Below, in pieces: positions 3,006 through 40,070 of a DNA stretch of 50,884 bases. How positions within the stretch are numbered: the first letter of the stretch is position 1; each line of letters opens with the position of its first letter. A model generated the notes under the pieces. The model saw nothing but the letters and a program-made list of their open reading frames with translations. It did not search any database and was not told the DNA's origin. This DNA comes from a virus (lineage: Duplodnaviria > Caudoviricetes): positions 1-50,884 of IMG/VR virus record IMGVR_UViG_3300045970_000272; one strand, 5' to 3'. Position numbers and translations under genes: made by a program.

Positions 3006-3031
3006 CGCGCGTAATTGGAACGTGCTATAAA
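3002..3031 (+). promoter_or_regulatory. Sigma70-like promoter
   Basis: TTGACG-18 bp-TATAAA with TG extended -10. Confidence 0.45.
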
Positions 3032-3064
3032 GAAAGCGGCCTTACTATTGGCTATAAAAGGAAG

Positions 3065-3091
3065 AACTCCCACCACTGATGGGAGTTTATT
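3065..3091 (+). terminator. Hairpin / weak intrinsic terminator
   Basis: AACTCCCA-7 nt-TGGGAGTT followed by TATTGGTTT. Confidence 0.4.
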
Positions 3092-3096
3092 GGTTT

Positions 3097-3408
3097 ATGG
3101 ACACCAACGAGACAGATTTACTCAAACTGATCCAAGAAGCCACCGACGCTGAGGACTATGACGCTGTCAAGGCGCACATGGCTCACTTAATAGAACATCA
3201 AAGCACACTCCCCCAGACCAATTTGACCAATGAAGACCTGGTTGAAAAGGGGTTCGACATTCTCCTCATTCAAAAGGAGCGCGCGCTGCGCGACTCCATC
3301 AACCAACTCAACCAAGACGGTGACTTTGCCACCGCCACTCAGAAGATGCGCGAGTTACGCCAGCTACAACGATTACAACCAAAGTACACAGGAGTAAAAC
3401 TAAGATGA
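3097..3408 (+). CDS. Helical hypothetical protein
   Basis: ORF 3079..3408; ATG at 3097 preferred because 3079 lies inside the hairpin. Confidence 0.6.
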   Translation: MDTNETDLLKLIQEATDAEDYDAVKAHMAHLIEHQSTLPQTNLTNEDLVEKGFDILLIQKERALRDSINQLNQDGDFATATQKMRELRQLQRLQPKYTGVKLR

Positions 3409-3659
3409 GTGCCAACGTAGACAAAGTCCTCGAGTACGTTTTGAAGAACACCAAGGAACTACCTGCCGATAAGATACAGGCTCTTGCCAGCGTGATCAAA
3501 GCTCTCGGCACAGAGATCCCCGAGGCTCCCAACTCCGTGGACGACACCCCCGATACAACCTTTGCAGACGAACAATCCCCCCTAGACCTGACCAAGATCA
3601 CTGAGGTCATGATTGATGGGCGCAAGCAGAAAATTAATATCGTTGGTAATACCAATTAG
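3405..3659 (+). CDS. Hypothetical protein
   Basis: 84-aa ORF, ATGA-coupled, directly before the portal. Confidence 0.65.
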   Translation: MSANVDKVLEYVLKNTKELPADKIQALASVIKALGTEIPEAPNSVDDTPDTTFADEQSPLDLTKITEVMIDGRKQKINIVGNTN

Positions 3660-3671
3660 AAAGGTAATGCT

Positions 3672-5888: not shown

Positions 5889-5891
5889 ATC

Positions 5892-6638
5892 ATGCCGTTC
5901 GATCGCAAGAAACTAATAGCCTTGAGAAACAACGTTCAAGCCATGATTGGTAAAATTGAACGTGAGGACAAGCTCGGCAACTTAGACAACATCATTAGTG
6001 AGAACACTAACGGTGCGATCACGGCGGCGTTTGCGCAGATGGAGTCACGCATGGAGCAGGCGATGTCCGCTCGTGGTGGTGGCGATTTGGAGGAGGTTAT
6101 TGAGAAGCTTGGTCGGCGCATCACGTCGGCGTACTCCAGTGCCTCCCCTAAGGACAGGACGGACGAGGTTATCACCGCCATCTCAAACATACGGTTCCCA
6201 GAGGTCAACTTCCCCAACACGGTATCTATCGACAACTTCCCTCCCCAAAAGATACCCAACCCCGTCACGAACATCAAAGCGACCATCGTGGGCGACACCA
6301 CAGGGTTGCTCGGTGGCGACACCGTCCACAAGTTCGGTGAGCAGACGGTGGCGGCAGGCAACACGGTCGCGTTGGCAACGTACACCGTCCCCGTCGACTT
6401 ATCTTTATTGGTGAAGGGCGTTTATGCGGAGGGGATAGACGACGGCTTATTCGCCCTCTACATTGACAGTACGAAGGTGTGGCAGGCGCGCAACTCATGG
6501 ACGCAGCGCAACGTGGAGTCCGACATTCAATTCAATTCAGTGGCGACAGGCTTGGTAGTCGAGCTGAGAGTGACCAATCTTAAAAATCTATCCAAGCAGT
6601 ATTCAGGAGGTTTCTATGGCATCAGAGTTAACCCGTAA
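5892..6638 (+). CDS. Virion protein: helical N-terminus plus C-terminal YTVP-type beta-sandwich
   Basis: C-terminus aligns by eye with that of 6847..7521; N-terminus resembles 9733..9936. Confidence 0.6.
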   Translation: MPFDRKKLIALRNNVQAMIGKIEREDKLGNLDNIISENTNGAITAAFAQMESRMEQAMSARGGGDLEEVIEKLGRRITSAYSSASPKDRTDEVITAISNIRFPEVNFPNTVSIDNFPPQKIPNPVTNIKATIVGDTTGLLGGDTVHKFGEQTVAAGNTVALATYTVPVDLSLLVKGVYAEGIDDGLFALYIDSTKVWQARNSWTQRNVESDIQFNSVATGLVVELRVTNLKNLSKQYSGGFYGIRVNP

Positions 6639-6828
6639 ACAACAGATCACCTTAATGGAGCTGGAGGACAAGGTTCCTATGCTCAAACTTAAACGCCGAC
6701 AAATCCAAATGGAGATGATGCGGCTGGAAGATAAAATCAACGACTACAAACAGTCACTCGAAGATAGTGACGCCGCCATAACCAAAGCGGAAGCGGAGTT
6801 CGCTGATTACAAATTAAGCCTTAAATAA
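6616..6828 (+). CDS. Coiled-coil protein
   Basis: 70-aa heptad-rich ORF; SD AGGAGG. Confidence 0.65.
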   Translation: MASELTRKQQITLMELEDKVPMLKLKRRQIQMEMMRLEDKINDYKQSLEDSDAAITKAEAEFADYKLSLK

Positions 6829-6846
6829 GGGAGGTGAAATAGACAA

Positions 6847-7521
6847 ATGGCAGATTACAATTCAAGTTTACCCGTAAGAACAGAAGCTGACGGTGACTTA
6901 GGTGCGCGTATCGTTGGTGCAACACCCGCGAACGTCTGGGTCATTGATGCAAGTGGTATCGGTCAGGTAAATCTCAATGACGGTACTAACGCATTGGCGA
7001 TTAATGCGGCTGGTGGTATCGGCGTTACTTTGGCAACAGGATCAGAAGTCAAGATCACTGATGGCACAGACACGCTCGCTATTACTTCGGCTGGATCAAT
7101 CACATCGCTTATTTCTGATGGTACCGACACTTTGGCTGTTAATACTGACGGCTCACTTAATGTGAACGTGGTCACCAGCACCGCTGGAGATCAAGTTCAT
7201 TCCTACGCAACCAGTGCTTCGTTAGCAGCAGGCGCAACAGCAACCGTGGTCAGTTACACCGTTACAACCGCAAAGACACTCTTACTCGCTTTGGCTCATG
7301 CTTCGGCATCAGGTAAAGCTAAGGTGGAAGTGTTAAGTGGAGTATCAGGTTCAGAAACCGTCAAGGCTGTATTCTTTATCAGCACCTCTAATGGATTCGG
7401 TACCGCTGAGTTCCCCAACAGGATCGAAGTGGCTGCAGGAGACAAAGTCCTCGTAAAGATGACCAACCGCGACAACCAGAGCCAAGATGTGTACGCATAC
7501 ATCAATGGTGTTGAAGTTTAA
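6847..7521 (+). CDS. Fibre/decoration protein with short beta repeats
   Basis: Three (I/L)xDGT(D/N)xLA(I/V) repeats; C-terminal beta-sandwich; strong SD GGAGGTGA. Confidence 0.65.
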   Translation: MADYNSSLPVRTEADGDLGARIVGATPANVWVIDASGIGQVNLNDGTNALAINAAGGIGVTLATGSEVKITDGTDTLAITSAGSITSLISDGTDTLAVNTDGSLNVNVVTSTAGDQVHSYATSASLAAGATATVVSYTVTTAKTLLLALAHASASGKAKVEVLSGVSGSETVKAVFFISTSNGFGTAEFPNRIEVAAGDKVLVKMTNRDNQSQDVYAYINGVEV

Positions 7522-7543
7522 TAAGCGTACGCCCCAACGTGGT

Positions 7544-7567
7544 GGTGGGTGGAGCAGTCTACCCACC
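7544..7567 (+). other. GC-rich hairpin after stop codon
   Basis: GGTGGGTGGA-GCAG-TCTACCCACC; no clear U-tract. Confidence 0.5.
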
Positions 7568-7596
7568 CCCCGTTAGGTTTATGATAGGATCAAAAT

Positions 7597-9306
7597 ATGG
7601 CAGATATATTGGCACCAACATCAGATGTTTCAATCTTTGATAACGACTCTAGCGTCTACGCTACGGTCAATGCCAGCCATGAATTATTGACCAAAGACAC
7701 CACCGCCGATAACTCCTTGGCGGGTATCAAAACTCAAACCGACAAACTCACCTTTACGGGTTCAAACCTTAACACCAACGCAACGGTTGCAGCGGTATCA
7801 ACGGGCGGTGACCAACCCAACGCCGAGGTTGCTCTCAACCCAGGCGACACTTCCCCCCTACTGCTTGATGGTAGCGGCAACCTCCAAACGCGCGCGCTTA
7901 TCCTGACGGACGAGGGTTCTATCTCTGAACCGTTTGCAGGCACTTCTCTCCCAGCAGGGTGGACATCGGTGGTTGGTACAGGCGGTTCAGTGAGTGTCGC
8001 CAATTCAATCTTGACGATAGCCTCTGGCACGACAGCCAATTCAGAAACGTATGTGACTTTCCCGATTGATTATTTGCCAATCAGAATTGATTTGATTGCC
8101 CAGGTTTCCCAGCGAATAGCTAATCAGGATATTTACATTGGGGTGTCCGACACTGTTAACCCAGCGACAGAAACCCAGTACGCTCGGTTGCGTTTCAATG
8201 GAACGAATAACTTGGCGGTTCTTTGTGAAACCGCAGCCCACACTGGCACAGGTGGTCAGGAGAGTGACGCGAGTGTTTTGAACAACAGCTCGGCACTCTA
8301 CCAGAGCTACAACATCAGTTTATTGCAAGAGCTGGTAAGTTTTGAGGCGGGTCTCACTCGTATCGAGCGCGAAGTTTTGCAGGCAGACGAAACCCAAATC
8401 CCCTCACCATACACCCCCCTTTTTATCAGGTTCCGTATCAAGAATGGGGCGGTGGCTCCAGCGTCCTCCACTGCTTTGAAAATTGATACCGTTCGTGTTT
8501 TGAACATGAACCGTGTGGATATTGCTCAAAAGGACACCCAGGATAGTGCGGTGGTTTCGATTGTTGGCTACGACACATACAGTCAGGTAAACAGACGAGT
8601 GAACGTGGACACCGCTGGACGGTTGCTCATTTCCCAGGAGAACCCCGCCTCTCAATTGATGACGTTTCGATACGAGGCGGTGGTTAACTTTGCAGGGGCA
8701 TTGGTTGGTCAATGGTGGGAGGCGATTGAATACATTGTCCCAGCGGGGTACAAATACAACATCACCAACGTCATGTTCTCGTCCCTTGATACAAAAATGA
8801 CTGGTCGATTATCGAAATACATTAGGGGCGGGACGTGGAATATCGCCACCAATGCTTTCACACCTACGGGATTTTCTTACCCAGCACCATACTTTGCAGA
8901 CTACTTGGAGCTTGAGCTTGACACTACGGTTGGAAATGCTGACGTAACCGTGACGGTGACTTACACCAATCAAGATGGAGTGGCTGGGAAACACGCAACA
9001 GCGGTAGTTCCCAAGAATACTGTGGCAGGTTTCAAAATCCCAATGACGCTTGAAACTGGCGACACGGGCGTGAGGGCAATCTCCGCGGTGAGTGATAATT
9101 CCAACGTTGCAGGGACATTGACCCTCAATATGGGTGTGACCATCTATCAACAGACTTGTACGATTGTAAATGAAACCTATCGAATACTCCCTCCAAAAGA
9201 CATCGTGGTTTACCCAGGAGAATTGGTTGTGGCGGATATAACGGTCAACGGCTCATCCAACGTCAATAGAATGATTAACATTACAGGTAAGATGGAGAAA
9301 CTATAA
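7597..9306 (+). CDS. Large beta-rich virion protein (head fibre/spike, lectin-like core)
   Basis: 569 aa, T/S/V/N-rich; FAGTSLPAGWT lectin-like start; YIVPAG domain near the C-terminus. Confidence 0.6.
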   Translation: MADILAPTSDVSIFDNDSSVYATVNASHELLTKDTTADNSLAGIKTQTDKLTFTGSNLNTNATVAAVSTGGDQPNAEVALNPGDTSPLLLDGSGNLQTRALILTDEGSISEPFAGTSLPAGWTSVVGTGGSVSVANSILTIASGTTANSETYVTFPIDYLPIRIDLIAQVSQRIANQDIYIGVSDTVNPATETQYARLRFNGTNNLAVLCETAAHTGTGGQESDASVLNNSSALYQSYNISLLQELVSFEAGLTRIEREVLQADETQIPSPYTPLFIRFRIKNGAVAPASSTALKIDTVRVLNMNRVDIAQKDTQDSAVVSIVGYDTYSQVNRRVNVDTAGRLLISQENPASQLMTFRYEAVVNFAGALVGQWWEAIEYIVPAGYKYNITNVMFSSLDTKMTGRLSKYIRGGTWNIATNAFTPTGFSYPAPYFADYLELELDTTVGNADVTVTVTYTNQDGVAGKHATAVVPKNTVAGFKIPMTLETGDTGVRAISAVSDNSNVAGTLTLNMGVTIYQQTCTIVNETYRILPPKDIVVYPGELVVADITVNGSSNVNRMINITGKMEKL

Positions 9307-9566
9307 TGAACTACCTTTACCTTTCAACAATTCAGCGATACACCGACAGCGTTCAAGACCAAGCAGAGGTTACTGACTTTGAGGCGTTGAAAAGTGGCAC
9401 GGTTTTGGTGAGCAACATTTTCTTGGCAGAGAACACTTTTATCATTGAAGAGCCGTACGACACTTTCAAAACCCACATTGTTGCACCGATTGCTTGGGGT
9501 GACGTGCGTAGAACCGAGCTTGGTAAGGAATACAAAATGTACCTAATAACAGGGGAGGCATTGTAA
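9306..9566 (+). CDS. Hypothetical protein
   Basis: 86 aa with TAATG coupling on both sides. Confidence 0.65.
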   Translation: MNYLYLSTIQRYTDSVQDQAEVTDFEALKSGTVLVSNIFLAENTFIIEEPYDTFKTHIVAPIAWGDVRRTELGKEYKMYLITGEAL

Positions 9567-9736
9567 TGGCAGCCAAGTACAAATCAAACGTTCTGACAGT
9601 AACCCCATCATGGACGAACGCTCAACTGACCACCGCATTGGACACCCAGCTCGCATTGGGGTGGGAACTCAAGCAGGTGGTGACGATTACCGCCACCAAC
9701 GTCAAGGCATTATTTATCAAAAAGGTATCAGAATGA
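9566..9736 (+). CDS. Small DUF4177-like protein, 56 aa
   Basis: Read by hand: MAAKYKSNVLTV...LDTQLALGWELKQVV (GWEL motif); SD GGGGAGG; coupled at both ends. Confidence 0.6.
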   Translation: MAAKYKSNVLTVTPSWTNAQLTTALDTQLALGWELKQVVTITATNVKALFIKKVSE

Positions 9737-9936
9737 GTTACGACGTAAACAAGCTCCGCGCGTTGCGCGACAACATAGACGGGTATCTGTCTCAAGCCAA
9801 CAAGGACGACGCCCACATCTACGAGGCGTTGGAGCAGTCCATCAGCCAGTCGGTAGCGCAGGCGATGAAGCCTTTGGTGGATGAGTTCGGCAAGCACGTC
9901 GACCGTCTTATCGAAGCTAATAAAACAAGTAAATAG
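9733..9936 (+). CDS. Helical protein, paralogue of the N-terminus of 5892..6638
   Basis: MSYDVNKLRALRDNI versus MPFDRKKLIALRNNV; ATGA overlap start inside ORF 9610..9936. Confidence 0.6.
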   Translation: MSYDVNKLRALRDNIDGYLSQANKDDAHIYEALEQSISQSVAQAMKPLVDEFGKHVDRLIEANKTSK

Positions 9937-9937
9937 T

Positions 9938-9966
9938 TTGACACGCCCATCGGCGTGTGTTACAAA
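9938..9966 (+). promoter_or_regulatory. Sigma70-like promoter with a palindrome across the -35 and spacer
   Basis: TTGACA-17 bp-TACAAA, TG extension; ACACGCC-CATC-GGCGTGT at 9941..9958. Confidence 0.55.
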
Positions 9967-9981
9967 TAATTAAAGAGAGAA

Positions 9982-10014
9982 CCTCACAGCCGTTTGGCGT
10001 GGGGCTTTTTGTTT
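9982..10014 (+). terminator. Intrinsic terminator
   Basis: CCTCAC(A)GCC-GTTT-GGCGTGGGG followed by CTTTTTGTTT. Confidence 0.6.
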
Positions 10015-10028
10015 ATAAGGAGGCTTTT

Positions 10029-10286
10029 ATGAAACAACCCAAAACTCCCGCTCAGATCCAGGGTCCCGAGTTAATCACCGACCGACCCGATAAATATCAG
10101 GTAAAGGTTGACCCCAATTCGTCCGTGTCCGCGCCAAGTCAGGACAGTGAGTGGTCTGAGAAGGTACCCGTTGACCTCAACTACGCCTTCGTCCCAACTG
10201 AGTTAACTCAAAAAGACAAGGAATCACCAGACAACCTCCAGAAAACGTTGGATACAACGATGGAGCGGTTTGGTCTTAAATATTAA
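10029..10286 (+). CDS. Hypothetical protein (head module)
   Basis: ATG at 10029 follows AAGGAGG within ORF 9957..10286. Confidence 0.65.
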   Translation: MKQPKTPAQIQGPELITDRPDKYQVKVDPNSSVSAPSQDSEWSEKVPVDLNYAFVPTELTQKDKESPDNLQKTLDTTMERFGLKY

Positions 10287-10300
10287 ATAGGAGAACTTTT

Positions 10301-10528
10301 ATGGATGCTGTAGCACAACAGAACGACAAAGCCATGAGTGCCGCCGAGGAAGCATTATGCTGCGAAACCTCAAGCGGTGAGGGTGGTCATTTTATTTCCA
10401 AATCGTCCTATCGTGGCGATATGCACGTTGGCGTACCCGCGACCGCTTCGGTTGTCGGCAACCAACCTGAACAAAGCTCATCTGATATTAACTTTACTGG
10501 GAAACCAGCAATACCAGGTGGAGAGTAA
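10301..10528 (+). CDS. Hypothetical protein (head module)
   Basis: 75-aa ORF; SD AGGAG. Confidence 0.6.
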   Translation: MDAVAQQNDKAMSAAEEALCCETSSGEGGHFISKSSYRGDMHVGVPATASVVGNQPEQSSSDINFTGKPAIPGGE

Positions 10529-10630
10529 TTTAACAATCCTATCGAACTGAACCCCATCGAGTCACGATCGTAATCGTTGTAGGGGCGAGGAGAGACGAAC
10601 CATTCGCGTTAAGAATGATAAGGAGGCAGT

Positions 10631-11401
10631 ATGGCAGACACGCCAGAGGTCAATGATCAACTGACCAACGCATCGCCAGCGGGAACAAGTGATCCAGAGA
10701 ATCATGATGATTCTGGAAATAGCGTAACTGAGAATTCGACCACTCAGCCAGACCAAAACGACTCTGTCGGAAGCGCAGCTCAAAGTCGCATCCGTAAGCT
10801 GTCCGCTACTGTAAAGCAAGCGGCACAGGAGGCTTCTTACTGGCGAGATGTCGCACGTAGGTATGCCGAAGCTGATAGAAATGCGATAGCGAGTGGTACG
10901 ACCGCTCCTGCTAACCGCGCGCCTCAAAACGCACCTGGTTATCAGACAGAGGAAGTACAACGGGCGTTCAGTACATTAAAAGCCGAGGGCATGGCAACCC
11001 AGGATGACCTAAAGGAAGCTCTTTTGAGAGTCCAATGGGATCGTCAGCACGATAGAAACGAGAACGATATCAACAAGAGAGGTTCTAATATGCCGCACTA
11101 CGACCGCGAGGAAGTGGAGCAGTATGCTAGAAGTCGAAGTATCCCCGACCCAATGGTCGCGTACCGAGAACTCTACTTTGATGAGATCGTTGACGCAGCT
11201 CGTCGTGGTGACGTCAAACCTCAGGGTAGTCGAATCACAACCCAGAAGCCGACCAAAGCTCCAGATGTAAGTCGAGAGCCGATGTCAGTCGAGTCATTTC
11301 GATCAAAGCTTGCTGGTCCAGAGGGGAAGGCATTTTACGATAAGTTAATGCAAAATCCCGCGGAGTTCGACAGGCTCATGCGAACTTGGAACGACGAATA
11401 G
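10631..11401 (+). CDS. Capsid scaffolding protein
   Basis: Acidic disordered N-terminus, AQSRIRKL helix, directly upstream of the major capsid gene; SD AAGGAGG. Confidence 0.75.
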   Translation: MADTPEVNDQLTNASPAGTSDPENHDDSGNSVTENSTTQPDQNDSVGSAAQSRIRKLSATVKQAAQEASYWRDVARRYAEADRNAIASGTTAPANRAPQNAPGYQTEEVQRAFSTLKAEGMATQDDLKEALLRVQWDRQHDRNENDINKRGSNMPHYDREEVEQYARSRSIPDPMVAYRELYFDEIVDAARRGDVKPQGSRITTQKPTKAPDVSREPMSVESFRSKLAGPEGKAFYDKLMQNPAEFDRLMRTWNDE

Positions 11402-11462
11402 CCTTGCTGAAGAGTTTAATAAATTAGTGACATACCAAGACGCTTAACAGCGCAAGGAAGAT

Positions 11463-12323
11463 ATGGCAAATTTTACAACCACAACTTCTGCGGTGTTCAT
11501 CCCTGAGGTATGGTCTGTTGAAACTTTGCGAGCAGCCGAACGATCACTCGTTATGGCTCCTCTCGTAAAGCGGTATGACTCGTTGGTCAAACAACGCGGC
11601 GATACCATTCACATTCCACACATCTCGAACTTGACCGCCAACGATAAAACTCAGAACAACGAAGTCACCCTTCAAACGGTGAGTGAGACTGAGACAACCA
11701 TTTCCATCAACAAGTGGAAAGAGGTTTCATTTGAGATTGAAGACATCGTCAAGGTGCAATCTCAGTACGATTTACGAAGTGAATACACCGCCAAGGCTGG
11801 TTATGCTATCGCTCAACGAGTAGATAGTGACCTTTTGGCTTTGTACGCTTCCCTCGCTTCAACTGACGTTGGAACCTATGGTTCTGACATCACTGATGCA
11901 ACAATCGTAGCTGGGCTGCAGGCTCTTGATGAGGTCGACGCTCCTTTGGAAGATCGTTACTTCGTAATCGCTCCTTCTCAAAAAGCTGCGATCATGAAGC
12001 TCGACAAGTTCGTCAAAGCTGACTTCTTAGGTCAGTATGACCAACCAACTCCAGTCAAGCGTGGTCCCAACTCAAGATATTTATGGGGTGATATTTATGG
12101 AATCCCAACCTACTACACCAACCAGGTTCCAACCACGGCGGGTACTCCCCTCCAAACCCATAACATCTTATTCCACAAAGAAGCATTCGCTCTTGCGATG
12201 CAATTGAGTCCACGTACTCAAGCTTCTTATTGGCAGAAAGATTTGTCTTGGCTAATCACGGCAGACACTTTATATGGCGTAGCTGTTATCCGCGATACCT
12301 TTGGTGTCGAGGTAAGAAGCTAA
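11463..12323 (+). CDS. Major capsid protein (HK97 fold, P22/N4-like)
   Basis: FIPEVWS, GDTIHIP, YAIAQRVDSDL, DRYFVIAP, GDIYGIPTY, DTLYGVAVIR motifs. Confidence 0.9.
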   Translation: MANFTTTTSAVFIPEVWSVETLRAAERSLVMAPLVKRYDSLVKQRGDTIHIPHISNLTANDKTQNNEVTLQTVSETETTISINKWKEVSFEIEDIVKVQSQYDLRSEYTAKAGYAIAQRVDSDLLALYASLASTDVGTYGSDITDATIVAGLQALDEVDAPLEDRYFVIAPSQKAAIMKLDKFVKADFLGQYDQPTPVKRGPNSRYLWGDIYGIPTYYTNQVPTTAGTPLQTHNILFHKEAFALAMQLSPRTQASYWQKDLSWLITADTLYGVAVIRDTFGVEVRS

Positions 12324-12337
12324 CGAAAGGTCAACTC

Positions 12338-12364
12338 GGTGGGGGGGGCTGTCCTCCCCCCACC
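12338..12364 (+). other. GC-rich hairpin downstream of the major capsid gene
   Basis: GGTGGGGGGGG-CTGT-CCTCCCCCCACC. Confidence 0.5.
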
Positions 12365-12390
12365 ACCCGACCTCTATTTGAAAGGACAAC

Positions 12391-26377: not shown

Positions 26378-29300
26378 ATGCCCATAACAAACCAAAGAAT
26401 ACCAAAACCTCTCAATGATTTCACCAACGGACTCAAAACCGCAGGCAGAAACGTGGCGATGGCTATCCCATCACTTCCCGAACTACGACAGGGAGTCAAA
26501 GACTTCCCTAAATCGTTCGGTGAGTTCACCAAAGCAATTCCTGAGGGCATGGGTTTGGCGATGCGCGCTGCCGATCCAGTATCCGCGTTAGGTGGAGAGC
26601 TTTTGGGTCAGGAATCACCCGACCCCACCAGAACTTTGCAACGTAACGGTCCCGACGAGGGGTTAGCCTCACGAACTGCCAAAGCAATCTATGAGGGTAA
26701 GAGTTTGTACGGCGGGTTACGCCAAAAGGGTGTTCACCCTGCGTTAGCGTTTGGTGCAGAAATGCTCACTCCTTCAATGTGGAACCTGACCGCTATTGGT
26801 CAAGCTGCGAAGAACTTCTCAGGTGGTGTTAAGATTAACAAGGCGTCCCCCACGGCTGTTTTGAAGGCTGTCGGTGACTTCGCCAAAGAGTCTGGCACGT
26901 CCCTTTCCACCCCCCAAATGGCGGGTATCGCTGCAGGGTTCCAACCTGAGTTTGACGAGAACGGCAACTTCAAAGGTATGGGTTACAACGAGAAGCGCGC
27001 AGGTGCGGCACTCCTTATACTCAACCTCGGCTTACCCGTTGCAGGCATGATTGCAGGTAAAGCTGCTAAGGGCTTCAAAGATGGCAACCAATTCAACCGT
27101 ATCGCTGACGGTGCGGAGGGCGCGACCAAGTTTGAAATCCCCGACGTCGACGCAAAGATTAACCTAAACGACGAGAGCATGAAGGGCTTAATCCGCTCGG
27201 GCGGAGAAGTCACCTACAAGCTGGGCGACGTACTCGATCACAAGGGATTATTTGAGGGCTACCCTGAACTCAAGGACGTGGACGTGACGATTGCGCGCAA
27301 TAACGACGCTTTCACCAACAAGACCGCGTTGGCAGAGTCCAACACCGACACCAACGGCATCACAATCCGACCCGTGGGTAACGTCGACCAATTCCGACGC
27401 AACCTGCTCCATGAAATAGAACACTTCGTTCAAAACATTGAGGGGTTCCAAACTGGCACACTCCCCGAGAAGATGGACATTGACCCCCAATTGGCTATCC
27501 AGCGCAACGTGCTGATGCAGGCGCGTGTCGCCACCGAACTCAAGGAGAAACTTGGGTCTTGGGAGGCTGCGTCCACTCAAATGGCAAACGACATCAACCC
27601 AGAAATAGCCAAATCCGCCGTCAGTGCTGCCAAACAGTACGATGGGTTGGAGGACATCAAACTTGCTCAACAGAACATTAAGAGCGCAATAGAACTTGAT
27701 ACCTGGGAGAAGTACAACAATATGCCTGGTGAGTCCGAGGCGGGTGCGGTTGAAACGCGCGCCAGTATGACCCCAGAACAGCTCGCCAGCACCGACCCGT
27801 ACGCAGCTCCAAAACTTGCTAATTCGGGGGAAATGGGTAATATACCCAAGCCTATGTCAAACATCCGCCCAGAGGACGCTGATTGGATTAAGCGTTCCGT
27901 AGACGACGTTGAATTAATGCCAAATCAGTTCCGTAACAACCTCGAGGACGCTGGGGTTGACCCCGCTATCACCGACAGACTTGTTAATATCAAAAATGAT
28001 GTGGCGCGATACAAGAACGACCCAGAAACGTTGCAAACCATCAAACAAGACTTGGAAAGCGTAATAGGATACCGTGGCAGAGGCGCAGTTCCCCCATCAA
28101 CTCTTGATGTACGAGCAGAAGCCAAAGCTGGTCTTGAACGTTACAACGGCACGAACGCAGGCGATGGGTACGACTATCCTGGCGTTGCTGGCAAAGTCCC
28201 CCAACCTGCCGATGACTCCGCCTGGGTCAAAGACCAGCTCGTAAATGACGATATGTCCTCCGATGAGGAGATGTACAAGCTGTTCGTCGACAACGGCATC
28301 AATCCCGCGCAAGCCAAAGAGGTAATTAAGCTCCGACAGTCGGTAATGACCGACCCCTACGCTGGAATGAACGGTAGTCCCCAAATGAACGCCGTTGAGA
28401 AGATCATGGGCGTAACCCCCAGCGAGAGCGCCGTTCCTGGCGTGTCGCAAGCCGACCTTGTCGCAGCCATGAAGAAGACCGCTGGCAAAGTCCCTGCACC
28501 GACTGGAGATGTGGGATCTAATTCCCTTCCGTACAAGCGAGCGTTCTCTTCACAACAAGAATACATTGATAACGTCAATTATCTAAGAAAATTGAAAGTG
28601 CCTGAATCAGAAATTGCCAGGATTGTCCCAACTGTCCAAGACCCCAGCACCTACAACGAGACGGTCACGGGCGGTAAATATGTTCCTCAAAAATTAAACG
28701 CCATAAGCTCTAGAGAGGGCATACTGAATGGAACTATCAAAGACCTTGAGAGTCAAATCCAGGCTGAAATATCTAGTGGCGCGCAACCATACCAGTACCG
28801 ACAGATCCAGGACGAATTGACCAAGGCTAATAACGATCTTTATGACCTGCAGCAATATAAATCTGGGGTGTCTGGCAAGGTTCCTTCTCCAGAATTACAA
28901 ACCAAATTAGACCAAAACAAAGCAATACAACAGGAAATTCAGGATCACCTGGACGATCCAATGGTCAACCCAAACGACCCAGATACATTGGAATACAAAC
29001 GAGAATTAAATAAACTCGCCCTAGAGGAAACTAAATTGTGGGAAGCCATTCATGGGGACGACCTCAAAGTGGCTGGCAAGGTTCCCCAACCTGACGACTA
29101 CACGGAGTGGACATTCACAGGTAAAGATGGAACTAAGACTACTGTGAATGGACTACGGCTAAAAGAAATGGGGATGGATATTGCCGACTATATTACCCAG
29201 GAGGGTGGTCAACCGTTTGATGTAAAAGTAAATGAAAACCCCGTTTATGGTGGCGACACGAATTACGATACCACCAAACCAGACTCTCTATTTGACTCGA

Positions 29301-31189
29301 TGACTGGTAGGGGTGCTTGGTCAAAGACATCTGGTAAGATCCCCCAACCCAACCCCGACCAACTCTCAATCTTCAACAAGAACGTCCCCTCGTACCACAC
29401 CGCCAAGGTGACAAACTCCACCGATGGTTCGGTCACACAGATGAACCTGCGCGACGTTAACCAGAATGCCGGTCCGTTCAGAACGGCAAGTAACCTGGGT
29501 TCGGACGTGGCTGGGAAGGTGCCAGCCCCATTCAACTACCAGCATGAACTGACCAATAAATCCATGATGAAGTCCCGAGGGATTATGTCGCTATTTGAGC
29601 CTTACATGGACAAGCAGGTTGGCAGGTTTGAAACGGCAACAGAGCAAGATGACTTTGTAGGCAAGATGTTCAACGAGATTGAAACCAAGATTGCCTCTGG
29701 TAAAGAACTAACCTTGGCGGATATAAAGTCAAACCTTAGAAATAACTTCCCCATGTTTGAGGGCAACCCCGAAGGGTTGAACCGTGCTGCGCGCGATATC
29801 CACAGCAATATGAAGTCATTTGGTGTGGCAGGCAAGGTTCCCTCTCCAAAAGAGATGGCTGACATGGAGTCATTCCTGCGCCAATCGGGTTCGACAGAGT
29901 CCGACATTAAGAGCGTGATGGAGCAGTACGCCAAAGCGGACGCCATCGCCCCCAACGCGCGCGGTAACGCCTTCACGGAAGCCAACCGAACGGACATCAA
30001 CACGGCGGGAAAGATACCCCAACCAACCAGCGTAGAACAGGACATTAAAGAGATAGCGCGCGCCTCTGAAGATTCGTTCGTGAAATACAAAATGCAAGAT
30101 TTGGTTAGGAATATGGGGGGAATGAGTAAAGACCAGATAGCTGCTGAACTTACCAAGCTATCAACATCAGACACCCTTGACAGCTTTGATAGGGAGAACC
30201 TGTCAAGCTTGTCCAATAAGCTCAACGGCGGCACCTACTCCAGCGCAAACGGTCGGTACGATATTGCTGGCAAGATTCCCAAACCTGCCGACGACGCCAT
30301 CGACATGATGCCCTGGTTGAAGAAGCAATCCAAAGAGGTACAAGACTTGGTATTTGGTGAGATTGCTGGTCAAGAAAATATGAGCGGTGACTTCTCCAAA
30401 GACTTCACCCAAGATGGACAGAACGCCTGGAACATTGAGATGCGCAAAGAGGCTCAAAAGTTTATGTTTGAACCCAAGAAAGTAGATCGAATTCATGCCC
30501 TGATCAACTCCCAATTCGGTCGAATGAACTTTGAGGATTACTACGATCCTATGGTCAAAGACCTCCAAAAGCTCGCGCAAAGCAAAACCCCCGTAGGTGA
30601 GGAGCAGGTGCAGGGAGTTCTTAAAAAGTACATCGGTGAACAGAACAACCAAGCTGGGACAATATTCTCTGAGGGAATGGAAATGATCCGTACAGGCAAG
30701 CTCCCCACCGTGAGCAAGGTGTCTGGAAAGATCCCCCAACCCATGAGCGCGGCCGACATGAAAGCGTTCGGTGGCAGGGACTACGGGTACGACCCAAATG
30801 AGACAAAGATACCTCAACAGCCCGTGCCAGTTCCCAAGCAAACTTTGGATATACCTCTCGATGAGGTTCAAGCAGAGATTGATGACGCGCCAGGTGACTA
30901 CACCAAGAACGCTGCACCAATGCTCAAAAAGGTGTGGGACGCAGGGCTTAGCCCTGACCAACTCAAAGTCGCCAGGGACGGCACAGTTACATTCCGACAG
31001 AGCTACTACTACAAGATGGGCAAGTCGCCTGAATTGTTAGCCAAACAGATTCAAAGCGCACTACCTGACGCGCAAATTGTCAGCACCAACGACGAGTTTG
31101 CACAGTGGCCCAAATCCAGCTACTTCGCGGTGAAGTTCAAAGTGCCAAAGGCAACTTCTGGAAAGATCCCGCTCATCCCAAAACGGTAG
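26378..31189 (+). CDS. Large polyvalent ejection protein (LPD23-like domain, HExxH metallopeptidase, 11 [AS]GK[VI]P-delimited modules)
   Basis: KFEIPD...KLGDVLDHKGLFEGYPELKD; LLHEIEHFVQNIEGF at about 27410; Y...PGESEA..VE.R; repeated linker motifs. Confidence 0.75.
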   Translation: MPITNQRIPKPLNDFTNGLKTAGRNVAMAIPSLPELRQGVKDFPKSFGEFTKAIPEGMGLAMRAADPVSALGGELLGQESPDPTRTLQRNGPDEGLASRTAKAIYEGKSLYGGLRQKGVHPALAFGAEMLTPSMWNLTAIGQAAKNFSGGVKINKASPTAVLKAVGDFAKESGTSLSTPQMAGIAAGFQPEFDENGNFKGMGYNEKRAGAALLILNLGLPVAGMIAGKAAKGFKDGNQFNRIADGAEGATKFEIPDVDAKINLNDESMKGLIRSGGEVTYKLGDVLDHKGLFEGYPELKDVDVTIARNNDAFTNKTALAESNTDTNGITIRPVGNVDQFRRNLLHEIEHFVQNIEGFQTGTLPEKMDIDPQLAIQRNVLMQARVATELKEKLGSWEAASTQMANDINPEIAKSAVSAAKQYDGLEDIKLAQQNIKSAIELDTWEKYNNMPGESEAGAVETRASMTPEQLASTDPYAAPKLANSGEMGNIPKPMSNIRPEDADWIKRSVDDVELMPNQFRNNLEDAGVDPAITDRLVNIKNDVARYKNDPETLQTIKQDLESVIGYRGRGAVPPSTLDVRAEAKAGLERYNGTNAGDGYDYPGVAGKVPQPADDSAWVKDQLVNDDMSSDEEMYKLFVDNGINPAQAKEVIKLRQSVMTDPYAGMNGSPQMNAVEKIMGVTPSESAVPGVSQADLVAAMKKTAGKVPAPTGDVGSNSLPYKRAFSSQQEYIDNVNYLRKLKVPESEIARIVPTVQDPSTYNETVTGGKYVPQKLNAISSREGILNGTIKDLESQIQAEISSGAQPYQYRQIQDELTKANNDLYDLQQYKSGVSGKVPSPELQTKLDQNKAIQQEIQDHLDDPMVNPNDPDTLEYKRELNKLALEETKLWEAIHGDDLKVAGKVPQPDDYTEWTFTGKDGTKTTVNGLRLKEMGMDIADYITQEGGQPFDVKVNENPVYGGDTNYDTTKPDSLFDSMTGRGAWSKTSGKIPQPNPDQLSIFNKNVPSYHTAKVTNSTDGSVTQMNLRDVNQNAGPFRTASNLGSDVAGKVPAPFNYQHELTNKSMMKSRGIMSLFEPYMDKQVGRFETATEQDDFVGKMFNEIETKIASGKELTLADIKSNLRNNFPMFEGNPEGLNRAARDIHSNMKSFGVAGKVPSPKEMADMESFLRQSGSTESDIKSVMEQYAKADAIAPNARGNAFTEANRTDINTAGKIPQPTSVEQDIKEIARASEDSFVKYKMQDLVRNMGGMSKDQIAAELTKLSTSDTLDSFDRENLSSLSNKLNGGTYSSANGRYDIAGKIPKPADDAIDMMPWLKKQSKEVQDLVFGEIAGQENMSGDFSKDFTQDGQNAWNIEMRKEAQKFMFEPKKVDRIHALINSQFGRMNFEDYYDPMVKDLQKLAQSKTPVGEEQVQGVLKKYIGEQNNQAGTIFSEGMEMIRTGKLPTVSKVSGKIPQPMSAADMKAFGGRDYGYDPNETKIPQQPVPVPKQTLDIPLDEVQAEIDDAPGDYTKNAAPMLKKVWDAGLSPDQLKVARDGTVTFRQSYYYKMGKSPELLAKQIQSALPDAQIVSTNDEFAQWPKSSYFAVKFKVPKATSGKIPLIPKR

Positions 31190-31220
31190 CCCCCACCCCC
31201 GTTGGTGGGGAAGTGGGGGG
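31177..31220 (+). promoter_or_regulatory. Candidate -1 programmed ribosomal frameshift signal
   Basis: In-frame C CCA AAA heptamer (31177..31183), spacer, then stem CCCCACC/GGTGGGG (31191..31210) and a downstream G-run able to pair with the loop. Confidence 0.7.
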
Positions 31221-31917
31221 AGAAATACCAGGAGGAGTGGCGGGAAAGATACCTAAACCCCTCATGGTGAACGAACAGGTCGCCCCCACGGATGTGGGTA
31301 AAGTCCGAGAAGATATTGGGGCTTTATTGAGTAAGAAATATAAAACCACGCTGGATGCATCGTTGGAAGACGAGCAGTTTAATCAAATAAAGAACGCCAG
31401 TCCTGGTGAGATAGAAAAGAGAATGGGATTTGTCTCCAATTTACTAGACACCGAACTGGCGAAGCGATGGAAGACAATCGACACCTACGAGTTAATAGCA
31501 AATAAAGCTGTACCAGACAAAGCCAAAGACAAGCTGATTGATGATGCCATCAAAGATTTGGAGGACGTTACTAAGTTCGCCGTGGTTAAGGTGGCTGGAG
31601 CAGACGGTAGAGAGGGTGAAGGGCTTGGCGCATTATCTGACTTCTTTAGTGAGGTGTACAAGGCGACTGGTAAAGATAAAGTCATCGCATTTGATAAGCT
31701 CATCAACATGATTCACTCCAACGATGGATCGGTACTGGCGGCCAACCTTGATATGAAGGTGGGTACGCCCGTGGCGAAGGCATTTAGCGAGATTGTTCTC
31801 GACAAACTCGATTCGTTGGCAGGAGGTATTCCAAAATCCTACTACCGCACCGAGTTTGGCAAATCTAGATACATACCAAAGTTTAGAGAATTACCAAAAC
31901 CAAAAGGAGTACGATGA
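31183..31917 (+). CDS. -1 frame C-terminal extension of the polyvalent protein (244 aa)
   Basis: Lies within ORF 31105..31917, which has no well-placed SD/start; contains a 12th AGKIPKP motif at 31240. Confidence 0.65.
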   Translation, partial: TVAPTPVGGEVGGEIPGGVAGKIPKPLMVNEQVAPTDVGKVREDIGALLSKKYKTTLDASLEDEQFNQIKNASPGEIEKRMGFVSNLLDTELAKRWKTIDTYELIANKAVPDKAKDKLIDDAIKDLEDVTKFAVVKVAGADGREGEGLGALSDFFSEVYKATGKDKVIAFDKLINMIHSNDGSVLAANLDMKVGTPVAKAFSEIVLDKLDSLAGGIPKSYYRTEFGKSRYIPKFRELPKPKGVR

Positions 31918-32132
31918 ACGAGTCCGCACTACAAAACATCCTCGAAAGCGGACTACTGGGAGCGATGCTTGTCATCGCGCTTGGGGTAATCGCTTTCCTT
32001 TATCGAGAGCTTTCAAAAGAGAAACAGGATCGGCTCGACGATCTTAAAGAGGTCTGGAAAGGTGACCTCGTATTCCGCGAGCAGATTAAGCAAACCCTAG
32101 AAAATATAACCGAACTGCTAAGGGGGAAATAA
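31914..32132 (+). CDS. Holin-like membrane protein
   Basis: One TM helix (SGLLGAMLVIALGVIAFLY) followed by a coiled coil; upstream of the peptidase. Confidence 0.55.
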   Translation: MNESALQNILESGLLGAMLVIALGVIAFLYRELSKEKQDRLDDLKEVWKGDLVFREQIKQTLENITELLRGK

Positions 32133-32344
32133 TGTGCCAAGAACATAAACACAATTTCATTAATCATCTGCTCGGTCGGTGCAAGCATCAGGAACGTATC
32201 CAAGAGCTACACCAACAGATCGCTGAGACACGGCAGATTACCAGCGATGAACTCGAGGAGTTCAATCAACGACTAAACATAATAATTAAAGATGAGAACG
32301 TGAGGATTACCCTCAAGAACATCAAGAAAGTGAGCGGCAAATGA
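32132..32344 (+). CDS. Coiled-coil hypothetical protein (lysis region)
   Basis: 70 aa, TAATG-coupled. Confidence 0.55.
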   Translation: MCQEHKHNFINHLLGRCKHQERIQELHQQIAETRQITSDELEEFNQRLNIIIKDENVRITLKNIKKVSGK

Positions 32345-32685
32345 CACTCGACCTATTCCTGAACATCATTTTGTTCGCTGCGCGCGTGCTGACTGCAATC
32401 TTTACATTCATATTGGCGTTCAACTTGCTGGCGGAGTGGAGAGGTGCGACTGAAGAGTCCAGCGGGCTTCAAGATACTCGTGTCACGATGGTCATATTGA
32501 TCGTTTCCCTGTTGCTGGAGAACTTCTTGTACACCTTGGCGTACATTCACGGCGGGTTCGATACCTTGAAACTTAACCAATGGATCACCGATGTTAAGCC
32601 CCTTTTTATCCTGTCCCGATGGGGGATATTTGTGGCGGTGCTTAGATTATTTCTGTTATTTTACCGTAAGCACAAGGAGGAATGA
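32341..32685 (+). CDS. Three-TM membrane protein (holin candidate)
   Basis: Three hydrophobic segments and a basic C-terminus. Confidence 0.6.
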   Translation: MTLDLFLNIILFAARVLTAIFTFILAFNLLAEWRGATEESSGLQDTRVTMVILIVSLLLENFLYTLAYIHGGFDTLKLNQWITDVKPLFILSRWGIFVAVLRLFLLFYRKHKEE

Positions 32686-33167
32686 TGTTAATCGTTGCGC
32701 CTTTGAGCCAAAGAGACCCGCGCTGGGCTAAGACCAAACTGGGCTTCTCCCCGTACACTATCGGTTCCGACGGTTGCACCGTCACCGCGTTCACCATGCT
32801 TGTAAACTTTGTGTACCGAACAAGCTATCGAGTCGATGAGGTCAATGAAAAGCTTAAATCAGTCGATGCGTTCGCCAAGAATACGGCTGGGTACAAATGT
32901 TTACTCATTTGGTCGGCGGCGTGCAAAGCGTACCCCCGATTGAAGTTCACTTGGAGAGCTTATAACTACGACAATCCGAAGACCTGGTGGTCTATCAATA
33001 TCCTCAAAATGCCCGTGATGGTGGAGGTAAATGCTGCGTCGATTGGCGCGTATCGTCATTGGGTGCTTTATCTGGGCGACCAGAAGTGCGTTGACCCCTG
33101 GGTGGGTCAGCTTGTTTCAACTGCAAAATACCCTGCTACTGGCTGTGCTTTTTACCAGTTAAGTTAA
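32682..33167 (+). CDS. C39-like cysteine peptidase (probable endolysin)
   Basis: SQRDPRW..LG...TIGSDGCTVT (catalytic Cys), HWVL, VDPW. Confidence 0.75.
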   Translation: MMLIVAPLSQRDPRWAKTKLGFSPYTIGSDGCTVTAFTMLVNFVYRTSYRVDEVNEKLKSVDAFAKNTAGYKCLLIWSAACKAYPRLKFTWRAYNYDNPKTWWSINILKMPVMVEVNAASIGAYRHWVLYLGDQKCVDPWVGQLVSTAKYPATGCAFYQLS

Positions 33168-35594: not shown

Positions 35595-35677
35595 ATTTCC
35601 TTTGTGGCTTTTGGGGGGCTGGTTTCCCAACCCCCCATTAACCTTCTAGCTAGACTGTTAAGCGTTGGCAAAGCCAA

Positions 35678-37724: not shown

Positions 37725-38033
37725 TTACACCTTTGATAACAAGAGGATCCTATCTGCACGGATTGACTGGAACAGCTCCACGTAGTCCAACGCAAGCTGC
37801 TTCATTTCTGGGAGTTTTGCTTCCCCCGAGGTGCGCGCAAACATCTCCACGGCGTCGTCGCAAAACCCGACCACAAAGTCCTCGCCAGGGTACTCGTCGT
37901 GCTTCAAAATCTCGGGCCACGATTCGGGCGGAGGGTCTTTGTGAAGTGGGTACGCTTGCAAGAACTTCACAATCTGCCACATACTGCTCTCGTCTTTTAT
38001 ATCTTTTGCTTCTTGGTTAGGTAGACTCCCCAC
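37725..38033 (-). CDS. Hypothetical protein
   Basis: 102-aa ORF filling the gap between dnaB and the exonuclease; start uncertain. Confidence 0.5.
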   Translation of the reverse strand: MGSLPNQEAKDIKDESSMWQIVKFLQAYPLHKDPPPESWPEILKHDEYPGEDFVVGFCDDAVEMFARTSGEAKLPEMKQLALDYVELFQSIRADRILLLSKV

Positions 38034-39295
38034 ATATCCTCCTTCATATTTTCTATCTTCCCGTAGGAATAATCGGTTAATACATAACTCGTTGCAAGTC
38101 GCCCACTACGGTTCTTGGCGAGTACGAGCTTTCTCCGCTCGTCCTCGTGGTTCTTTGGGTCGCCAAATTGGTAGATGAGCGCGCAGTCCGCAGCATTTTC
38201 AAGATTGCCTGACCCCTTGAAACCAAACACTCCGCTGTTCTCGAACTGCTCGGTCTTTTGGGAGTCGCGGTTCATTTGGGAGAAGGCAACCACAAAGACG
38301 TTCTTTTCCACCGCGAGGTGTTGGAGCTGGCGCACCACCATGTTCATGCCGTCGTACTCGCTCTTCTCGTTGGTGGAAATGTTTTGGAGGTAATCAACCA
38401 CGATGCACTTCACGTCGTGGGCGTAAATCTGGTACAGGATCTCAAACATGGCGCGATCCCAATCGTGGACGTAATCCACGCAGTAAAGCGGTTCGTGCTG
38501 GAACGCCTCCAAAGCTGCGTCAAACGCGTCCTGCTTCTCTTGTGGCGCGGAACCGTGTTCGATGTCGTCAAGGGTTATGGTGGAGTCCTCCATGCGCTGG
38601 ATCAGGGTGCGCCAAAGCAACTTCTCTCGGCTCATTTCAAAGGAAACCCAGAGGACGGGGACGCCCTCCTTGAGAAATGCGTTGACCATTTTGGTCGCAA
38701 CCCAAGTCTTTCCCACGGACGTCTGCCCTCCAATGAGCCACATTTCCTGGGGGCGCATACCGTAAGTCACAAAGTCTATGGCACTAAACCCCGTGGGAAT
38801 ACCTTTACCTCCAGCCTCGCGCGTGCGCTTCCACTGCTCTCGCAGCTTGCGTACCCCCTCAATGTTGGAGGCGTCCTCCCCATCAAAGCGCACCTGGTTG
38901 AGGTCTTGCATCATGCGTACCGCCAACTCGTCAGGTTTGGTTTTGGTTAATTCGCACTCCTTGAGGGCTTTCTCCAGGGTAATCTTCAAATTGGCAAGCT
39001 GGGTACGGGATTTGATTTGCTTGATGGGATCTTCAAGCTGCGTGGCGTAGTAGTAGCTCGACCAATAATTCAGGATCATGTCCTTGTCGATGCCGTCCTC
39101 CTCGAGTTTGGCGTAAACCATGCGGTTGTCGACGTTGGATTTGGAGGAGAGTTCCTTCAAAGCAACGAAGGCTCTTTTGCAAAGGGGATCACTAAAGTCA
39201 TATTCCGTCAGGCTGTGCAGCAAAATTGGCAGAGTTTCCTTTGGGTAGAGTATTGCCGTGCGGATTACCCGCCCCTCGTAGTTAACCTTGCCCAT
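37997..39295 (-). CDS. dnaB: Replicative DNA helicase (DnaB family)
   Basis: GIPTGF, GGQTSVGKT (Walker A), SFEMS, VDYLQ, SQMNR, KGSGNLENAAD, KNRSG. Confidence 0.93.
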   Translation of the reverse strand: MGKVNYEGRVIRTAILYPKETLPILLHSLTEYDFSDPLCKRAFVALKELSSKSNVDNRMVYAKLEEDGIDKDMILNYWSSYYYATQLEDPIKQIKSRTQLANLKITLEKALKECELTKTKPDELAVRMMQDLNQVRFDGEDASNIEGVRKLREQWKRTREAGGKGIPTGFSAIDFVTYGMRPQEMWLIGGQTSVGKTWVATKMVNAFLKEGVPVLWVSFEMSREKLLWRTLIQRMEDSTITLDDIEHGSAPQEKQDAFDAALEAFQHEPLYCVDYVHDWDRAMFEILYQIYAHDVKCIVVDYLQNISTNEKSEYDGMNMVVRQLQHLAVEKNVFVVAFSQMNRDSQKTEQFENSGVFGFKGSGNLENAADCALIYQFGDPKNHEDERRKLVLAKNRSGRLATSYVLTDYSYGKIENMKEDMWGVYLTKKQKI

Positions 39296-40070
39296 GTTCT
39301 TCTAACCTTTCCTTTTCAAACCTGATGTGCGCGTCACGGTGTATTTGATCACGTTCCATATTTCCCTCTTTACCTCGCCTTTCGCAAGCGGCAAGTCGAT
39401 CCCACTCCTCATCGGTAAAAGGGGAAGCCTGCTTAACACGAGGTTTTGGAATAAACACGGGTTCACCCCGTGGCTCGTTTGCACTCCGCACCCACGGAGT
39501 TTCGCTCGTTACTGGTTTGGGTGGGGGGGGCGCGTTAAGCGCACCCACCCCGTCACTGTTTTGGTTATCAGATATCTTTTTATGGAAAGTAAAGGAAATT
39601 TCATTTCCTTTCCTTTCCTTTAGGGGGCGACGCGTCCCCTGCGCGGGACGACTCGTTACGGATGAGTTACGGTTAGCCTGGTTCTGCTGCACCATTGAGT
39701 ACAAATCGGTCTTTTCTTTATCTAAATACGCTTTGAGCTTCGTTGTGTAGTGGTGGTCTACGTGTTTGAGAACTTGTGGGATATACAGTCTGCCGTCGGT
39801 TGACTGATAGGTGAGTCCAATCTCGTCCATTACTGCCAAAATCTCTCTAAGACGGTCGGGGGTTACGTTGCATTCAATTGCAAGGGACTCCGCGTCGTGC
39901 GAGGGGTCGACCTTGCCCCAATCTTCAAACGGGATGCTTGCCCCCAATGTTTCCTGAGCAATTTCACAAAGATCCCACCATACCGCCTTTCCCTCGTTAC
40001 CGCATCGATCTACCAGTTTCTTTATTTTGGGGTCACGCCTAGAGTTCGTTTCATGACCAAAATACTTCAT
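39282..40070 (-). CDS. Replication initiator (DUF4373/Lin1244-like N-terminal winged helix)
   Basis: MKYFGHETNSRRDPKIKKL...GKAVWWDLCE; KERKGNE linker; directly upstream of dnaB. Confidence 0.7.
   Translation of the reverse strand: MKYFGHETNSRRDPKIKKLVDRCGNEGKAVWWDLCEIAQETLGASIPFEDWGKVDPSHDAESLAIECNVTPDRLREILAVMDEIGLTYQSTDGRLYIPQVLKHVDHHYTTKLKAYLDKEKTDLYSMVQQNQANRNSSVTSRPAQGTRRPLKERKGNEISFTFHKKISDNQNSDGVGALNAPPPPKPVTSETPWVRSANEPRGEPVFIPKPRVKQASPFTDEEWDRLAACERRGKEGNMERDQIHRDAHIRFEKERLEEHGQG

Follow-up and report, generated by a model that had tools for sequence, protein, structure and literature searches.

A frame junction behind the giant gene

The virus record IMGVR_UViG_3300045970_000272 (Duplodnaviria; Caudoviricetes), found in pond metagenomes, is a complete genome of 50,884 base pairs (bp) with direct terminal repeats, and the whole of it forms the window analysed here. 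PHROGs places the portal at 3672-5888, and the late (structural) gene block of the + strand ends with a giant gene coding for 1603 amino acids (aa), whose open reading frame (ORF) closes with ATC CCA AAA CGG TAG. We concentrate on this 3' end, where a further module is encoded in the -1 frame and may be joined to the giant protein by programmed ribosomal frameshifting. Both readings carry a linker motif, [VTI][AS]GK[IV]PxP and variants, with 13 copies in the giant protein and one in the -1 ORF. The relevant features are given below, with distances in nucleotides (nt).

26378..31189, + strand: zero-frame giant ORF, 1603 aa, with non-homologous modules between 13 linker motif copies
27410..27424, + strand: HEIEH, an HExxH zincin-like motif, in a conserved domain at about residues 250-365
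31154..31183, + strand: last zero-frame copy of the linker motif, TSGKIPLIPK, degenerate and at the very C-terminus
31177..31183, + strand: slippery heptamer C CCA AAA, in-frame and in the X XXY YYZ register, so that both tRNAs can re-pair in -1
31187..31189, + strand: zero-frame stop TAG, preceded by CGG, the rarest Arg codon in the genome (8%)
31190..31219, + strand: 11-bp G:C-rich bulged hairpin, directly after the stop and 6 nt past the heptamer, -22.1 kcal/mol
31180..31917, + strand: -1 reading, the shift-site Lys plus 244 codons, with TGA at 31915-31917
31237..31260, + strand: copy of the linker motif read in -1, VAGKIPKP, starting 19 codons past the shift-site Lys
31294..31818, + strand: core of the last module, helical and conserved in the related proteins P0003 and P0004; residues 39-213 of the 245-aa query

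A first-pass annotation of this DNA had pointed to the ORF end and to the in-frame heptamer, and both proved correct in letters and coordinates. Since the last zero-frame motif copy shows the zero frame to be true to at least 31171, the change of frame must fall in 31172-31189, and the heptamer lies inside this 18-nt stretch, the sole one able to join both readings. The same annotation had described a -1 frame open to 31917 with a motif copy in it, which the coordinates confirm: the frame is open from 31069 to the TGA, and the joined product computes to 1846 aa. VAGKIPKP follows the previous motif copy after 28 residues, and all other spacings are at least 59.

Positions 31190-31196 of the hairpin pair with 31213-31219, and 31197-31200 with 31207-31210, leaving an AA bulge and a GUUGGU loop. 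A different structure had been proposed previously, namely a 7-bp stem whose loop would engage a downstream G-run in an H-type pseudoknot. This stem, CCCCACC (31191-31197) with GGTGGGG (31204-31210) around the loop CCCGTT, exists and is perfectly complementary, but it is not the best fold: alone it reaches -14.4 kcal/mol against -22.1 for the nested 11-bp hairpin, and the pair probabilities are 0.98-0.995 for the latter versus about 0 for the former. The pseudoknot is thus unnecessary, because the more stable nested hairpin already uses the same G-run. As a T-run is absent 3' of the hairpin, the structure is not a terminator; promoter-like or terminator-like sites were not found on the + strand in the vicinity of the junction, the junction region has no matching Rfam family, and no Shine-Dalgarno (SD)-like enhancer was seen by eye upstream of the heptamer.

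The signal was compared with the rest of the genome in a survey of 44 gene models (13,103 codons) that we picked from the ORF list. These models contain 45 in-frame heptamers, among which the one at 31177 ranks first for the stability of the downstream 40-nt fold (-22.1 kcal/mol against -15.6 for the runner-up), for the length of the open -1 frame (246 codons against 108) and, with 2 codons, for the closeness of the stop. Genome-wide, 28 of 33,896 40-nt windows on the two strands fold as well as the hairpin; on the + strand, windows at or below -22.1 kcal/mol form three other clusters, those at about 7531 and 12325 being intergenic and that at 39514 lying among - strand gene models. When the linker peptide APTPVGGEVGGEI was held fixed and its codons were redrawn by genome usage, 12 of 3000 synonymous versions were as stable as the native sequence (mean -13.7 kcal/mol, standard deviation 2.8). 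The slippery coding ATC CCA AAA occurs in one of the five I-P-K motif copies, with a chance of about 0.07 from codon usage. The heptamer type itself, C_CC.A_AA.A, is among those listed as shift-prone in Escherichia coli (E. coli) in the excerpted text of PMC4066793, which gives C_CC.A_AA.G as the best heptamer known in this organism, reaching 54% with the IS3 pseudoknot.

The last module and its relatives

The 245-aa -1 reading was searched with phmmer against 1.84 billion representatives at an expectation value (E) of 0.001 or lower, and four proteins were returned. The first, P0002, is the gene-called ORF of this very genome. P0003 (259 aa, 39% identity, E = 4.6e-26) originates from Logan, on one 8,059-bp contig, and P0004 (1672 aa, 34% identity, E = 2.2e-13) from JGI, on one 25,842-bp contig; both are known here as protein sequences alone. 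The fourth, P0005 (1154 aa, E = 5e-5), is repetitive and matched in four stretches, and was dropped as unrelated. Its homology to two other proteins shows that the -1 ORF truly codes for protein.

P0004, itself a giant protein, carries the module in frame as its C-terminal part, at residues 1514-1657 of 1672. Because the same module is fused C-terminally there, it belongs to the giant polypeptide, as the first-pass annotation had held. P0003, on the other hand, is a separately called ORF that starts MGVWHPKS, with its M 19 residues before its motif, and the split state is consequently not unique to the present genome. P0003 could be independently initiated or frameshifted. Its 'WHPK' offers a hint of the latter, as it would be the -1 reading of slippery-site nucleotides if the zero frame there had xSGIPK. 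At the equivalent place the -1 frame of our virus reads ...GNFWKDPAHPKT, and the codon at the start position of P0003 is AAA.

The three last modules also share their borders. Each is preceded by the motif and then '..VAPT[DN]' or 'MPTD', and each ends in an [IL]PK[PA] motif 1-5 residues from the stop; the 1603-aa product likewise ends ...IPKR. Such IPK-type ends, common to the short product and to all last modules, suggest that the zero-frame stop is designed. In an AlphaFold model of the module (overall predicted local distance difference test score, pLDDT, 67.6), residues 39-213 are helical and mostly score 75-91, and the flanking tails, which carry the motifs, are disordered. Foldseek found no match to this model at E <= 0.001 in PDB or BFVD, and Pfam, NCBIfam and PHROGs assign no function to the module.

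Further searches yielded little. The module, the giant protein and alignment A1, when used as queries in word-based protein searches, recovered nothing beyond the virus's own proteins; IMG/VR scans with the module, P0003 and P0004 gave nothing usable, and metagenome contig scans with A1 and P0003 gave no match. The GenBank phage collection has no match to the junction region (blastn of 30400-32400; tblastn of P0002), and IMG/VR scans with two of the neighbouring upstream genes as queries recovered no relatives. A scan with the zincin-like domain gave 15 IMG/VR loci, and tblastn of the three last-module sequences against 16 loci detected no copy of the module. One IMG/VR locus, L001 (26% identity over 96 residues of a 302-aa ORF), was judged spurious. 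Two loci from metagenome-assembled genomes, found in a genome contig scan, hold housekeeping-type ORFs of about 1000 and 375 aa, which we take to be aminoacyl-tRNA synthetases and which have only a '..AELAQRWK..' pattern in common with the module; they were dropped.

A proposed programmed frameshift and its alternatives

We propose, with belief and doubt about evenly balanced, that a programmed -1 ribosomal frameshift adds the last module. Most ribosomes would read ATC CCA AAA CGG and stop at TAG, giving the 1603-aa protein that ends in the degenerate motif. Some would pause while CCA occupies the P site and AAA the A site, the hairpin standing at the mRNA entrance 6 nt downstream, and both tRNAs would re-pair one base back (CCC, AAA). 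Translation would then run on through a Pro/Gly-rich spacer, the further linker motif and the conserved helical module, yielding the 1846-aa isoform. Such a mechanism would account for the slippery coding, the stop 2 codons on, the hairpin with its placement and codon choice, the missing start, the fusion in P0004 and the motif at the end of the short product, which every full-length family member also has. The slippage itself and its efficiency we infer from this arrangement, and a sub-stoichiometric dose of the last module would be its presumed outcome. Compared with the frameshift as originally suggested, the anatomy of the signal stands, as do the coding capacity of the -1 ORF and its want of a start; the pseudoknot is not needed, and the fused P0004 counts against the idea.

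Several observations weigh against a programmed shift. The first-pass annotation had itself named a fused gene in relatives as contrary evidence, and since P0004 is fused in frame, frameshifting is not universal in the family. The giant protein starts with the same motif, and a separately started module (...AGKIPKPL) would look alike. Of 200 dinucleotide shuffles of 31184-31245, 63 match or exceed the fold stability of the native sequence (z = -0.38), from which it follows that the stability of the hairpin reflects the local composition of C-runs and G-runs; the hairpin could be a by-product of the Pro (CCC) and Gly (GGN) codons of the linker. Homopolymer runs are, moreover, also prone to indel mutations. 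The HPK tripeptide shared with P0003 is weak support, given that 13-15% of random peptide pairs with these lengths have some exact 3-mer in common. Finally, the efficient E. coli heptamers end in A_AA.G, and A_AA.A ranks low among the tetramers in the excerpted text of PMC4066793. By analogy with these E. coli rankings, a modest frameshift efficiency appears plausible.

Two other routes across the stop were considered and set aside. Read-through of TAG would never reach the module, for the zero frame meets another stop after 26 codons, and transcriptional slippage is in our judgement unlikely, the A-run being only 4 long.

The alternative that survives best, although we consider it somewhat unlikely, makes the last module a separate gene initiated at GTG 31237 or GTG 31213, perhaps via termination-reinitiation, in which a ribosome stopping at TAG 31187-31189 would melt the hairpin that buries GTG 31213. 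Anti-SD duplex energy and spacing to the start were calculated for 42 gene models. An SD duplex of -6 kcal/mol or stronger, with pairing that ends 2-12 nt before the start, is present in 24 of them, and the start codon is ATG in 39 and GTG in 3. The candidate starts of the -1 ORF are as follows.

GTG 31105: SD duplex -2.5 kcal/mol, amounting to no SD; start chosen by the gene caller for P0002, with an 85-nt overlap with the giant ORF
GTG 31213: SD duplex -5.5 kcal/mol; weak GGTGGGG at about 1 nt spacing, within the 3' arm of the hairpin
GTG 31237: SD duplex -10.3 kcal/mol; strong AGGAGGA ending 1 nt before the start
ATG 31264: SD duplex -3.3 kcal/mol; pairing ends 17 nt upstream, making the SD unusable

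The earlier statement that the -1 frame lacks a properly spaced SD and start therefore holds, with the strong AGGAGGA 1 nt from GTG 31237 as a caveat, and the last module may have a weak or re-initiated start. In favour of a separate gene, a strong SD does adjoin GTG 31237, the position of GTG 31213 in the 3' arm of the hairpin is a classic layout for translational coupling, and P0003 is a separately called 259-aa ORF starting with M. The own N-terminus of the giant protein carries an IPKPL motif, and if each protein began and ended with the motif, the spacing of 28 residues would be explained. Conversely, the SD spacing at GTG 31237 and 31213 is 0-1 nt, outside the 2-12 nt of the 24 strong-SD genes, and GTG is a rare start in this genome. 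The virus has AAA where P0003 has its start codon, and a scanning ribosome would meet the out-of-frame TTG 31202 and GTG 31205 before GTG 31213. A separate gene also leaves the slippery coding of I-P-K without reason, and the module is covalently fused in P0004.

Alternatively, the loss of one base in the A/C run, as a recent mutation or a sequencing error, might have split a continuous frame, with full-length product made only by adventitious slippage. We find this improbable, although P0004 is fused, indels favour homopolymer runs, which are the stuff of slippery sites, and the -1 frame is intact over 244 codons, as it would be after a recent event. The first-pass annotation had called for an assembly error to be excluded. 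A Logan contig of run X1 (50,696 nt, depth 13.4), an independent assembly, is identical base for base across the junction, with 0 differences and 0 gaps over 30000-32500, a comparison made on contigs, in which minority indel variants would be hidden; the run is, besides, probably from the source sample. Run X2, from another pond study, contributes four fragments (168-238 nt) with 100% identity in the region, which leave 30597-31561, and with it the junction, uncovered; owing to this identity the same genotype is present in at least two data sets. In addition, a stop within 2 codons would follow a random loss in only about 9% of cases by our estimate, P0003 is unfused as well, and the loss of a base leaves unexplained both the top-ranked, codon-optimised hairpin and a motif copy 28 residues on.

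Lastly, the hairpin might act in RNA processing or stability or in pausing, with the heptamer coincidental and the -1 ORF expressed by an unrecognised route, which we regard as very improbable: most of the other very stable folds on the + strand lie between genes and look regulatory, and Rfam has no match for the region, but the missing T-run argues against an intrinsic terminator, and the co-occurrence with a heptamer, a stop and a long coding -1 frame would go unexplained.

Returning to the programmed frameshift, an extended version can be formulated in which the giant is a self-processing polyprotein. The linker motifs are candidates for sites at which the embedded HExxH domain processes the protein, and if they serve as such, the motif-bracketed 28-residue spacer with its RNA signals would be disposable. 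Because the cassette of heptamer, stop and hairpin sits in the spacer between two motif copies, the residues dictated by the RNA would be trimmed away, the slip rate would set the dose of the last module, the one cargo module that the family conserves, and the phage encoding P0003 would carry such a cassette too, its N-terminal 'W-HPK-S' matching the -1 reading of a zero-frame xSGIPK motif. We regard this fuller scheme as doubtful.

The junction has a consequence for annotation as well. Gene callers give a 270-aa ORF (P0002) from GTG 31105 that overlaps the giant gene by 85 nt, a start that is almost certainly wrong.

The giant protein, its family and known systems

The N-terminal sequence of the giant protein is MPITNQRIPKPL, which places a motif copy at residues 7-12 (26396-26413), and the IPKPL near its N-terminus recurs in the motif of the last module, AGKIPKPL (31237-31263). 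Within the giant protein the motif copies are 59-481 residues apart, and the segments between them are without mutual similarity; there are 13 such motif-delimited segments, and self-BLAST found no internal repeats. In all six frames, the core [KR][IV]PxP has just one occurrence elsewhere in the genome (6249). P0004 possesses a repeated linker motif of its own, QANIP[KPM]P. ORFs of at least 500 aa lack the regular [AS]GK[IV]PxP motif in the 9 loci inspected of 15 related IMG/VR loci.

Outside the last module, P0004 and the giant protein share the HExxH domain (36% identity over 110 aa, E = 3e-11; HESQH in P0004), and their middle modules are unrelated. By tblastn, the HEIEH domain matches 43 records (best E = 2e-12), with giant proteins from F116-like Pseudomonas phages and from Xanthomonas phage DES1; a further match is to phrog_13543 at E = 3.8e-9. 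Its best Pfam hit, DUF6782 'putative metallopeptidase', stays below threshold (E = 0.085), and no Pfam or NCBIfam model reaches threshold. Xanthomonas phage DES1 encodes a 2156-aa giant protein with the same HExxH domain (4403-10873 of locus L018). In Hollowayvirus Baskent_P6 (440-11788 of locus L019), a 3782-aa 'PLxRFG domain-containing protein' lies directly before holin, glycoside hydrolase (endolysin) and spanin genes; the giant gene here is placed likewise, ahead of small genes that start at 31914. A common plan thus emerges for the family, with a conserved zincin-like domain, variable modules between IPxP linkers and a conserved last module.

The textbook -1 signals given in the excerpted text of PMC5009743 are those of lambda G/GT, T7 gene 10, IS3/IS911 and dnaX; the shift in lambda G/GT sets the molar ratio of two products at 30:1, and T7 gene 10 uses a G_GU-type site with a long-range stimulator. 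As in lambda G/GT, the heptamer here lies towards the 3' end of a late gene, and a minority product would gain a C-terminal domain from the -1 frame. In lambda and the equivalents of other tailed phages, however, the protein is a small chaperone encoded upstream of the tape measure and the arrangement is conserved, whereas here it is a multi-module protein of 1603 aa with a zincin-like domain, its gene lies before lysis-position genes, a strong 3' hairpin follows, and one relative, P0004, is fused. The gene accordingly falls outside the tail-chaperone family, being the last one before the small lysis-position genes and coding for an HExxH domain within 1603 aa.

In gene 10A/10B of T7 and T3, a -1 shift near the stop of a virion gene generates a minor, C-terminally extended isoform with a short extension; unlike there, the extension here is a folded module of 244 aa. 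The likeness to IS3/IS911 and dnaX lies in the X XXA AAZ heptamer, the spacer of about 6 nt and the stable 3' structure, which in those systems is a stem-loop or a pseudoknot, and the difference in the last letter of the heptamer, which here is A rather than G.

Concerning the protein, polyvalent proteins offer the closest class. Iyer et al. 2017 (PMC5512222) propose that zincin-like peptidases carry out the processing of these multi-domain polypeptides. The present protein resembles them as a giant late-gene product with many unrelated modules and a putative zincin-like domain with HExxH, and differs from the class as modelled in that no Pfam or NCBIfam model reaches threshold. It thus fits the polyvalent protein class, with the membership being architectural for this very reason. 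The word 'frameshift' is absent from the available text of PMC5512222, and, by title and abstract, none of the three papers whose full text combines frameshift, polyvalent protein and phage deals with such a gene. The mechanism is canonical and the gene context new, as far as our searches reach.

If the frameshift is real, it would add a giant multi-module protein, probably delivered with the virion, to the tail chaperones and capsid proteins for which tailed phages use programmed -1 frameshifting. The dose of the conserved last module could then be changed via the heptamer or by fusing the frames, which would provide a handle on its function and on the reason for giving it a dose of its own. 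Independently, a regular linker motif with an analogue in a distant relative constitutes a testable candidate for the postulated processing sites of polyvalent proteins.

Downstream, the following gene completes the locus.

31914..32132, + strand: next gene, a small protein of 72 aa, with weak matches to membrane-protein domains of unknown function (DUFs)

The TGA of the -1 ORF overlaps the ATG of this gene (ATGA), and the SD of the gene sits within the end of the -1 ORF. The gene occupies the place that the holin has in F116-like phages.

A few observations elsewhere in the genome were also made. An in-frame CCCAAAG at 38153-38159 on the - strand (gene 37997..39295) has the second most stable downstream fold of the survey, at -15.6 kcal/mol; this heptamer type is the most efficient one in E. 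coli, and only 17 open codons follow in its -1 frame. Further 40-nt windows that fold very stably, at -24 to -29 kcal/mol, lie at 7531-7580, 12325-12376, 35605-35653 and 39514-39562, with those at 12325, 35605 and 39514 being strong on both strands, and may be terminators or regulatory hairpins. Finally, at 32682-32690, AAGGAGGA is followed by ATGATG, the first ATG having a 1-nt spacing as at GTG 31237. As this SD spacing is only 1 nt, that gene probably starts at the second ATG (32685) instead.

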